Below are positions 31,552 to 32,124 of a stretch of 64,000 nt of DNA, piece by piece. This stretch comes from Escherichia coli 042 (GTDB lineage: Bacteria > Pseudomonadota > Gammaproteobacteria > Enterobacterales > Enterobacteriaceae), in NCBI RefSeq assembly GCF_000027125.1, contig NC_017626.1; one strand, 5' to 3'. The notes under the pieces are model-generated. The model did no database searches. It was not told the DNA's origin and was given only the letters and a program-made list of their open reading frames with translations. A program made the position numbers and the translations under genes. Within the stretch, counting starts at the first letter, position 1; every line of letters starts with the position of its first letter.

Positions 31552-31626
31552 AAAAAACCCCGCCGGAGCGAGGTTTCGTCAGTCGCCTGCGGCTGGTAAC
31601 CGCAAAGCACACTGTATTATGTCAAC
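31552..31626 (-). ncRNA. istR: IstR-1 small RNA (antitoxin RNA for tisB); coordinates approximate
   Basis: Minus strand ends in a GC hairpin plus U-run (cctcgctccggcggggttttttgtt) at about 31552; lies divergent from tisB downstream of a LexA box; matches my recollection of istR-1. Confidence 0.5.
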
Positions 31627-31732
31627 ACTGAAAGTATACGTGTTCCGCGCAGAACGCGCAATTTCGGCACGAATTTTGACGTATTTAGTGCATAGTTGAG
31701 TATCGATCACACTTTACGTTTTGTCTAAATAT

Positions 31733-31752
31733 TACTGTTTATTTATACAGTA
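31733..31752. promoter_or_regulatory. LexA box (SOS operator) in the tisB/istR-2 control region
   Basis: tactgtttatttatacagta = CTGT-N8-ACAG palindrome close to consensus, followed by tataat at 31759..31764. Confidence 0.85.
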
Positions 31753-31986
31753 AGCTTCTATAATATCACTGTACGCAATGTGTTATGCGGGGGCCGCATC
31801 GTTACCCGGCGCACTAAGTCCTGGCTGAAACGGGTGGTGCCGTCAGCGCCTTAACCCCGCGTGAGCACACTGTGTTATGTCAACAAGCACAACGTTTCTC
31901 CTTGAGATACCGCGTGCACAACAGCTGGCAACAGGCAGCGGAAAGGTACGTCAGCTGGCAGTGCTCCTGAACCACAGGAGACGCGT

Positions 31987-32076
31987 ATGAGCCTGGTGGA
32001 TATCGCCATTCTTATCCTCAAACTCATTGTTGCAGCACTGCAACTGCTTGATGCTGTTCTGAAATACCTGAAGTAA
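31987..32076 (+). CDS. tisB: Type I toxin TisB (29-aa SOS-induced membrane peptide)
   Basis: Hand translation: MSLVDIAILILKLIVAALQLLDAVLKYLK*; AGGAG 6 nt upstream. Confidence 0.9.
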   Translation: MSLVDIAILILKLIVAALQLLDAVLKYLK

Positions 32077-32098
32077 TTCAGATTCAAGTCGCACCAAA

Positions 32099-32124
32099 GG
32101 GGAGCGGTTACCCGCTCCCCTTTT
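32099..32124 (+). terminator. Rho-independent terminator after tisB
   Basis: ggggagcgg-tta-cccgctcccc followed by tttt. Confidence 0.8.

Follow-up and report, generated by a model that had tools for sequence, protein, structure and literature searches.

Sequence analysis of the chromosomal tisAB/istR type I toxin–antitoxin module of Escherichia coli 042

Introduction

A stretch of 64,000 nucleotides from the chromosome of Escherichia coli 042 (contig NC_017626.1 of RefSeq assembly GCF_000027125.1), referred to below as the window, was analysed with regard to the segment 31552–32124. With near certainty, and judged from its sequence, this segment is the chromosomal tisAB/istR type I toxin–antitoxin module of E. 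coli in intact and presumably functional form, and no result spoke against this identification. The initial annotation of the window had placed a complete tisB/istR locus here, and each element that it listed was recovered in place, far beyond what is expected by chance. Its boundaries were likewise apt: the 3′ end of istR falls exactly at 31552, and the stem of the tisB terminator ends at 32124. The locus had been called known rather than novel, a judgement borne out by its identity to K-12 and by published surveys (PMC11264685). Sequence, position, allele and mechanism of tisB/istR are all already known, and the locus is ordinary.

Results and Discussion

Identity and chromosomal setting of the locus

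The gene order ilvB-ivbL-istR-tisB-ysdE-emrD is the same as in K-12 MG1655 and in the RefSeq annotation of the nearest genomes, and the closest of these have a RefSeq tisB annotation at the corresponding position. In K-12 MG1655, istR–tisAB (b4616 / b4618) occupies the same chromosomal site with the same gene order and aligns with the window without gaps. The two sequences are separated by eight substitutions in 573 bp (DNA ~98.6% identical). The description of the K-12 locus is reportedly due to Vogel et al. 2004, Darfeuille et al. 2007 and Romilly et al. 2019 and 2020.

Alignment to K-12 istR–tisAB, which had been proposed as a check of the assignment, gave 0 differences in IstR-1, IstR-2, the LexA box and the 216-nt 5′ UTR, and one in the tisB ORF (N2S). 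The tisAB −10 element, the istR-1 promoter, the istR-2 −10 element, tisA and the Shine–Dalgarno sequence are identical as well. The small RNA, on whose match to istR the assignment had been made to depend, differs from K-12 IstR-2 at 0 of 140 positions. All features, together with the differences from K-12, are collated in Table 1.

Table 1. Features of the tisAB/istR locus of E. coli 042 and of its flanks, with all substitutions relative to K-12 (positions refer to the window).
Feature	Position	Strand	Remarks
ivbL, ilvBN leader peptide	31324–31452	−	Flanks the tisB/istR locus
IstR-2, 140 nt, long LexA-dependent form	31552–31691	−	K-12 RefSeq ncRNA istR b4616 (3853118–3853257) mapped; 0 differences
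IstR-1, 73 nt by RefSeq coordinates, constitutive antitoxin RNA	31552–31624	−	K-12 coordinates mapped; 0 differences
istR-1 promoter	31633–31661	−	−10 TATACT (31633–31638), −35 TTGCGC (31656–31661), 17-nt spacer; identical to K-12
istR-2 promoter	31699–31727	−	−10 GATACT (31699–31704), identical to K-12; −35 TAGACA (31722–31727), TGGACA in K-12
LexA operator (SOS box)	31733–31752	.	TACTGTTTATTTATACAGTA; common to the divergent tisAB and istR-2 promoters; identical to K-12
tisAB promoter −10	31759–31764	+	TATAAT; identical to K-12
tisAB primary transcript (+1 mRNA), about 357 nt	31771–32127	+	Differs from K-12 at 4 positions: N2S plus three bases of the terminator loop
5′ leader, 41 nt	31771–31811	+	Removed, according to the published mechanism, by processing that yields the active +42 mRNA with its start at 31812 (PMC6690012)
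5′ stem-loop (+50 to +64) and pseudoknot partner (+73 to +77)	31820–31847	+	For S1/30S standby binding; positions from PMC7708055
Ribosome standby site, IstR-1 target	31863–31885	+	23-nt complementarity to istR
tisA ORF, 37 codons	31877–31990	+	Putative ORF; overlaps the tisB start (ATGA); identical to K-12
tisB Shine–Dalgarno sequence	31976–31981	+	AGGAGA; predicted to be structurally sequestered; identical to K-12
tisB ORF, 29-aa membrane toxin	31987–32076	+	N2S allele, MSLVDIAILILKLIVAALQLLDAVLKYLK; NCBIfam and Pfam matches
tisB intrinsic terminator	32096–32130	+	12-bp perfect G+C-rich stem (32096–32123), loop UUAC (GAAA in K-12), U-rich tail
Trailing segment with REP-like palindromic element (about 32144–32183)	32131–32190	.	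Part of the present/absent module
emrD	from 32350		ysdE/emrD lie on the other flank of the tisB/istR locus
Substitutions vs K-12	31712, 31716		istR-2 promoter spacer
Substitution vs K-12	31726		istR-2 −35, TGGACA (K-12) to TAGACA
Substitution vs K-12	31754		A to G, between LexA box and tisAB −10
Substitution vs K-12	31991		AAC to AGC, TisB N2S
Substitutions vs K-12	32108, 32109, 32111		GAAA to UUAC, tisB terminator loop

LexA operator and promoters

A near-consensus LexA box with a −10 element had been described, and both are present. The operator (TACTGTTTATTTATACAGTA) agrees with the consensus TACTGTATATATATACAGTA at 18 of 20 positions, contains a perfect CTGT-N8-ACAG palindrome, and is the sole match with three or fewer mismatches in the 64 kb (0.00 expected from shuffles). 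It is situated between the istR-2 −35 hexamer on the minus strand and the tisAB −10 hexamer on the plus strand, and ends 6 bp upstream of the latter, so covering the −35 region. The tisAB transcription start was anchored by mapping the mutated nucleotides C50, C51, G54, C55, U56, G57, C74, A75, G76 and C77 (PMC7708055, Romilly et al. 2020) onto the window; it was assigned to G 31771, 7 nt after the −10 element, because all ten numbered nucleotides fit solely with this position as +1.

The locus had been termed SOS-controlled. This description is appropriate for tisAB and IstR-2 but does not extend to the antitoxin IstR-1, which has its own constitutive promoter and is not induced by damage (PMC4147584, PMC11264685). 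Both hexamers of the istR-1 promoter, TATACT and TTGCGC, are those listed for MG1655 (PMC11264685 Table 1). For istR-2, the −35 hexamer of the window and that of K-12 each match the consensus TTGACA at 5/6 positions; TAGACA is a minority variant, since 94.5% of E. coli loci carry TGGACA (PMC11264685).

The istR small RNAs

In an Rfam scan of the whole 64 kb, istR (RF01400) was matched on the minus strand at 31552–31681 with 150.1 bits (gathering score 45, E 3.7e-31) over model positions 1–130 of 130. This full-length match includes the terminator, in agreement with the earlier description of a divergent small RNA with a terminator hairpin of its own. IstR-1 is predicted to fold into two stem-loops behind 10 unpaired 5′ nucleotides (−32.5 kcal/mol); the second hairpin is the terminator (about 31553–31578) and is followed by a U-run. 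Rfam labels istR "Hfq binding", whereas according to a review Hfq is dispensable for the well-characterised type I antitoxins (PMC4147584).

The tisAB transcript, its standby site and its pairing with IstR-1

The tisB 5′ UTR is identical to that of K-12 at 216 of 216 nt, including the +1, +42 and +106 landmarks, the standby site, the pseudoknot, tisA and the Shine–Dalgarno sequence. The RNase III-dependent +106 mRNA end maps to 31876, and the tisB AUG maps to +217. The pseudoknot loop GGCUG (31823–31827) and its partner UCAGC (31843–31847) are present and identical to K-12, the fold being taken from the publication, and all ten functionally mutated pseudoknot nucleotides (50, 51, 54–57, 74–77) occur with their published identities. 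No Pfam or NCBIfam family was matched by tisA, an ORF that is conserved in >99% of loci, yet whose translation has never been demonstrated (PMC11264685).

The istR RNA (31627–31605) and the mRNA from +93 to +115 (31863–31885) can be joined by 23 contiguous pairs, G-U pairs included, and this is the sole complementary stretch of at least 10 nt between the istR and tisAB RNAs. When the RefSeq 5′ end of IstR-1 (31624) is used, 20 of the 23 pairs lie within IstR-1. On the DNA, the complementarity is seen as a 22-nt direct repeat (31606–31627 and 31864–31885, 95% identical). The published complementarity of about 21 nt between IstR-1 and the standby site, ~100 nt upstream of the RBS (PMC4147584, PMC6690012), is thus matched here. 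A whole-molecule RNAduplex calculation for IstR-1 and the +42 mRNA (−73.5 kcal/mol vs −49.9 ± 4.2 kcal/mol for shuffles) was dropped in favour of the scan for contiguous complementarity, because the duplex crosses structured parts of both RNAs and intramolecular folding is ignored.

Predicted probabilities of being unpaired were low at the translation start in the +1, +42 and +106 isoforms (0.15–0.16 for the Shine–Dalgarno sequence, about 0.1 for the AUG, 0.09–0.16 overall). The minimum-energy structure predicted for the +1 RNA has nucleotides 31773–31782 of the leader paired with nucleotides 31866–31875 of the standby site. The ensemble prediction separates the isoforms weakly, with a mean unpaired probability of the standby site of 0.39 in the +1 vs 0.46 in the +42 mRNA; because this difference is small, the structural switch between the two isoforms rests on published probing.

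The leader also contains, at +6 to +17, an imperfect 12-nt repeat of the standby core (31776–31787, CAAUGUGUUAUG, vs 31868–31879, CACUGUGUUAUG). This repeat is identical in K-12 and lies in the portion that is removed by processing to the +42 mRNA; it may be a second site of IstR-1 pairing, or may reflect the pairing of leader and standby site in the +1 fold.

TisB and the tisB terminator

The 29-aa TisB ORF and its terminator, both noted in the initial annotation, were found on the plus strand, the ORF being followed by a hairpin and a T-run. The protein scores above the cutoffs of two NCBIfam equivalog models (NF011340, 69.9 bits, cutoff 53; TIGR04459, 61.5 bits, cutoff 38), each of which covers residues 1–29 of 29, and above that of Pfam PF13939 (37.6 bits, cutoff 25). 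It is the same protein, with no differences, as the consensus E. coli TisB-N2S allele (WP_000060506.1), and of the 4358 complete E. coli genomes that carry tisB, 3161 share its ORF nucleotide for nucleotide, BL21(DE3) and O157:H7 among them. In a survey of >2,000 genomes, N2S was the dominant E. coli TisB variant (85%); its toxicity was no lower than that of the K-12 allele, and it left survival in ciprofloxacin unchanged (PMC11264685).

In the terminator, all three differences from K-12 are restricted to the loop. The variant loop region (32104–32115, GCGGUUACCCGC) resembles the top of the first IstR hairpin (31592–31603, GCGGUUACCAGC); the two have the same sense and are therefore non-complementary, and the resemblance is probably a coincidence.

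Conservation of the RNAs relative to the local background

The local background of divergence from K-12 is 2.4% over about 10.6 kb (3.7% for ilvBN, 2.4% for emrD). Against this background, all 356 nt of IstR-2 and the tisB 5′ UTR taken together are unchanged (binomial p = 2e-4), and the two transcripts together differ from K-12 at 4 of 497 nt (p = 0.008). This pattern is what would be expected of RNAs constrained in both sequence and structure, that is, under purifying selection. Unchanged RNAs in a genome that is ~2.4% diverged nearby are a small illustration of such selection and add nothing beyond the population surveys (PMC11264685), in which the standby site, the RBS and the −10 elements were conserved in >99% of loci and the LexA box in 93.5%.

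Distribution of the module among E. coli genomes

In the 5,426 complete E. coli genomes searched, tisB was found in about 4,358, always on the chromosome, and the segment comprising istR and its promoters, searched separately, was likewise found in about 4,358. The flanks of tis/istR are present in 5,420 of the 5,426, so the module is absent from about 20% of the genomes. Presence of tis/istR is a real polymorphism, and one that is already documented. In the tis-less strain AGR5151, some 150 bp of unrelated DNA stand in place of the equivalent of positions 31551–32190 (approximate), and no istR or tisB remnant and no Rfam match were found in this DNA. Because the replacement spans this interval, the polymorphic unit extends from the istR terminator to just past the REP-like element, slightly beyond 32124. 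The element at about 32144–32183 is one that we take to be REP-like, on the strength of the REP consensus and of one similar copy at 56545. In two other genomes (GMF054, for example) the match to the istR segment is limited to its first 76 nt; these may carry an orphan IstR-1.

The lineage of the host was compared on 14893–51943 and on 22000–42000 and is uncommon. Over 20 kb it is ~97.5–98% identical to K-12 and ~97% to most complete genomes; 99.2% identity is reached with two strains only (four records), namely ECA64 (dairy product, France) and CB6837 (human).

Alternative readings of the locus

A decayed or inactivated remnant of tisB/istR might merely look complete, and the module is indeed missing from the fifth of E. 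coli genomes mentioned above; at the locus itself, however, no evidence for decay was found. The coding and regulatory parts are free of frameshifts, stops and indels, tisA and the UTR match K-12 exactly, the tisB ORF is that of 3161 complete genomes, and the promoter hexamers, the Shine–Dalgarno sequence and both terminators are intact. A pseudogene was therefore ruled out as exceedingly improbable. Confusion with a similarly organised type I pair (dinQ/agrB, zor/orz or shoB/ohsC) is conceivable in so far as these share a layout in which the toxin mRNA has a long 5′ UTR and a divergent small RNA pairs with its far upstream part (PMC4147584, PMC7708055). However, the TisB equivalog and Rfam istR models are matched over their full lengths, the DNA occupies the K-12 site at the identity given above, and no other antitoxin RNA family reached its gathering score in the Rfam scan of the 64-kb window. 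A pair of this kind was also ruled out, its probability being practically nil.

A different proposal accepts a genuine tisB/istR module and holds that the promoter substitutions, together with N2S, alter the SOS threshold, the level of IstR-2 or the potency of the toxin in this lineage. The 79-bp divergent promoter region contains four substitutions (31712, 31716, 31726 and 31754) that are private to the window in comparison with K-12, GMF065 and ECA64, while the flanking RNAs are invariant; the 221-nt istR-promoter segment has no identical copy in the 5,426 complete E. coli genomes (best 99.1%), and its istR-2 −35 hexamer departs from the one found in 94.5% of loci. The cluster (4/79, 5.1%), however, is no significant excess over the background of 2.4% (about 1.9 expected, P roughly 0.1 as an estimate), the LexA box and every −10 hexamer are untouched, TAGACA and TGGACA are equal in their match to the consensus, tisB is reportedly not repressed by IstR-2, and N2S is the majority allele, with ciprofloxacin survival unchanged (PMC11264685). 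An altered set-point is accordingly unlikely. The more specific claim that this private four-substitution haplotype, a combination present in none of the 5,426 complete genomes, measurably shifts the balance of tisAB, IstR-2 and LexA in a rare E. coli lineage is a shade less likely again, and a reading of the haplotype as a regulatory set-point is unsupported. If it were true, the promoter haplotype would change how readily DNA damage makes TisB-dependent persisters, which would be of minor interest. In ECA64, the nearest relative, the promoter region carries different changes, one of them inside the LexA box.

Mechanism expected for the module in strain 042

For an intact tisAB/istR module, mechanism and phenotype have been established in K-12 (PMC6690012, PMC7708055, PMC4147584, PMC2826370). 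The published mechanism can be transferred to 042 because every RNA element is identical to its K-12 counterpart, and it is from this identity that we infer expression, processing, toxicity and phenotype in 042. LexA bound to the operator between the divergent promoters would keep tisAB and IstR-2 off. Upon DNA damage, the tisAB +1 mRNA would be made in an untranslatable form, and loss of its first 41 nt would yield the +42 mRNA, exposing a single-stranded standby site ~100 nt upstream of the buried tisB RBS. Protein S1 and the 30S subunit would load at this site, aided by the 5′ pseudoknot, and would then slide to the start codon, unfolding the structure on the way. The constitutive IstR-1 (73–75 nt), whose promoter lies inside the IstR-2 unit, would pair with the standby site and block loading; the pairing would also direct cleavage by RNase III, giving the dead +106 mRNA. 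Once the mRNA exceeded IstR-1, TisB would be inserted into the inner membrane and depolarise it, the proton motive force and ATP would be dissipated, and a drug-tolerant persister state would result.

The tisB/istR system is the best-characterised chromosomal type I toxin–antitoxin system and the paradigm for ribosome standby. From the presence of the locus, E. coli 042 can probably form TisB-dependent, fluoroquinolone-induced persisters. Beyond correct annotation, the finding has little significance.

Further features of the window

Positions 138–14691 hold the eip/eilA/air accessory island, which is not in K-12 (no BLAST match to the K-12 selC–nlpA side) and is known beside selC in EAEC 042 and ST69 (PMC2808357, PMC7058095). 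Its genes encode a SipD/IpaD-like T3SS needle-tip protein (138–1319, +), the HilA-family regulator EilA (1522–3219, +; NCBIfam NF009037, 953 bits, cutoff 589) and a 3,806-aa inverse autotransporter of Air/EaeX-like type with >20 Big_1/Invasin_D3 repeats (3271–14691, −). The GC content rises to 62% in the repeat region and is about 35–38% at the regulator end.

Relative to K-12, a 3.3-kb insertion with 34% GC (25926–29235) lies between uhpA and ilvN, and its low GC content suggests horizontal acquisition. It contains two paralogous ORFs on the minus strand (26028–27464, 478 aa, and 27678–28985, 435 aa; 26% identical, E 5e-29), neither of which gave a Pfam or NCBIfam match. In ECA64, the closest genome, the annotation of both is simply "hypothetical protein", and the second ORF is shorter.

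Beside the tisAB/istR module, the small-protein gene ysdE (32200–32277, −) has, in the window and in ECA64 alike, an ATA where K-12 has its ATG start codon, owing to a C-to-T substitution at 32272. An in-frame TTG is located directly upstream of the altered start (32277–32275), and ysdE is still annotated by RefSeq in ECA64.

Besides istR, three matches at the Rfam gathering level were obtained in the 64 kb: AsdA, the antisense RNA of the dnaA mRNA (62082–62162, +, 101.9 bits), the ROSE_2 thermoregulator in the ibpA leader (46359–46431, −, 100.4 bits), and the ES036/CssrF sRNA (56563–56605, +, 50.9 bits), which follows directly after a REP-like sequence (56545–56562).

Comparison with known systems

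Among the type I pairs, dinQ/agrB (also LexA-controlled), zor/orz and shoB/ohsC have no sequence homology to tisB/istR. They resemble it in combining a small hydrophobic toxin with a long, structured 5′ UTR that needs processing, and in each of them the divergent small RNA pairs with the mRNA a long way upstream of the RBS, at what is probably a standby site (PMC4147584, PMC7708055).
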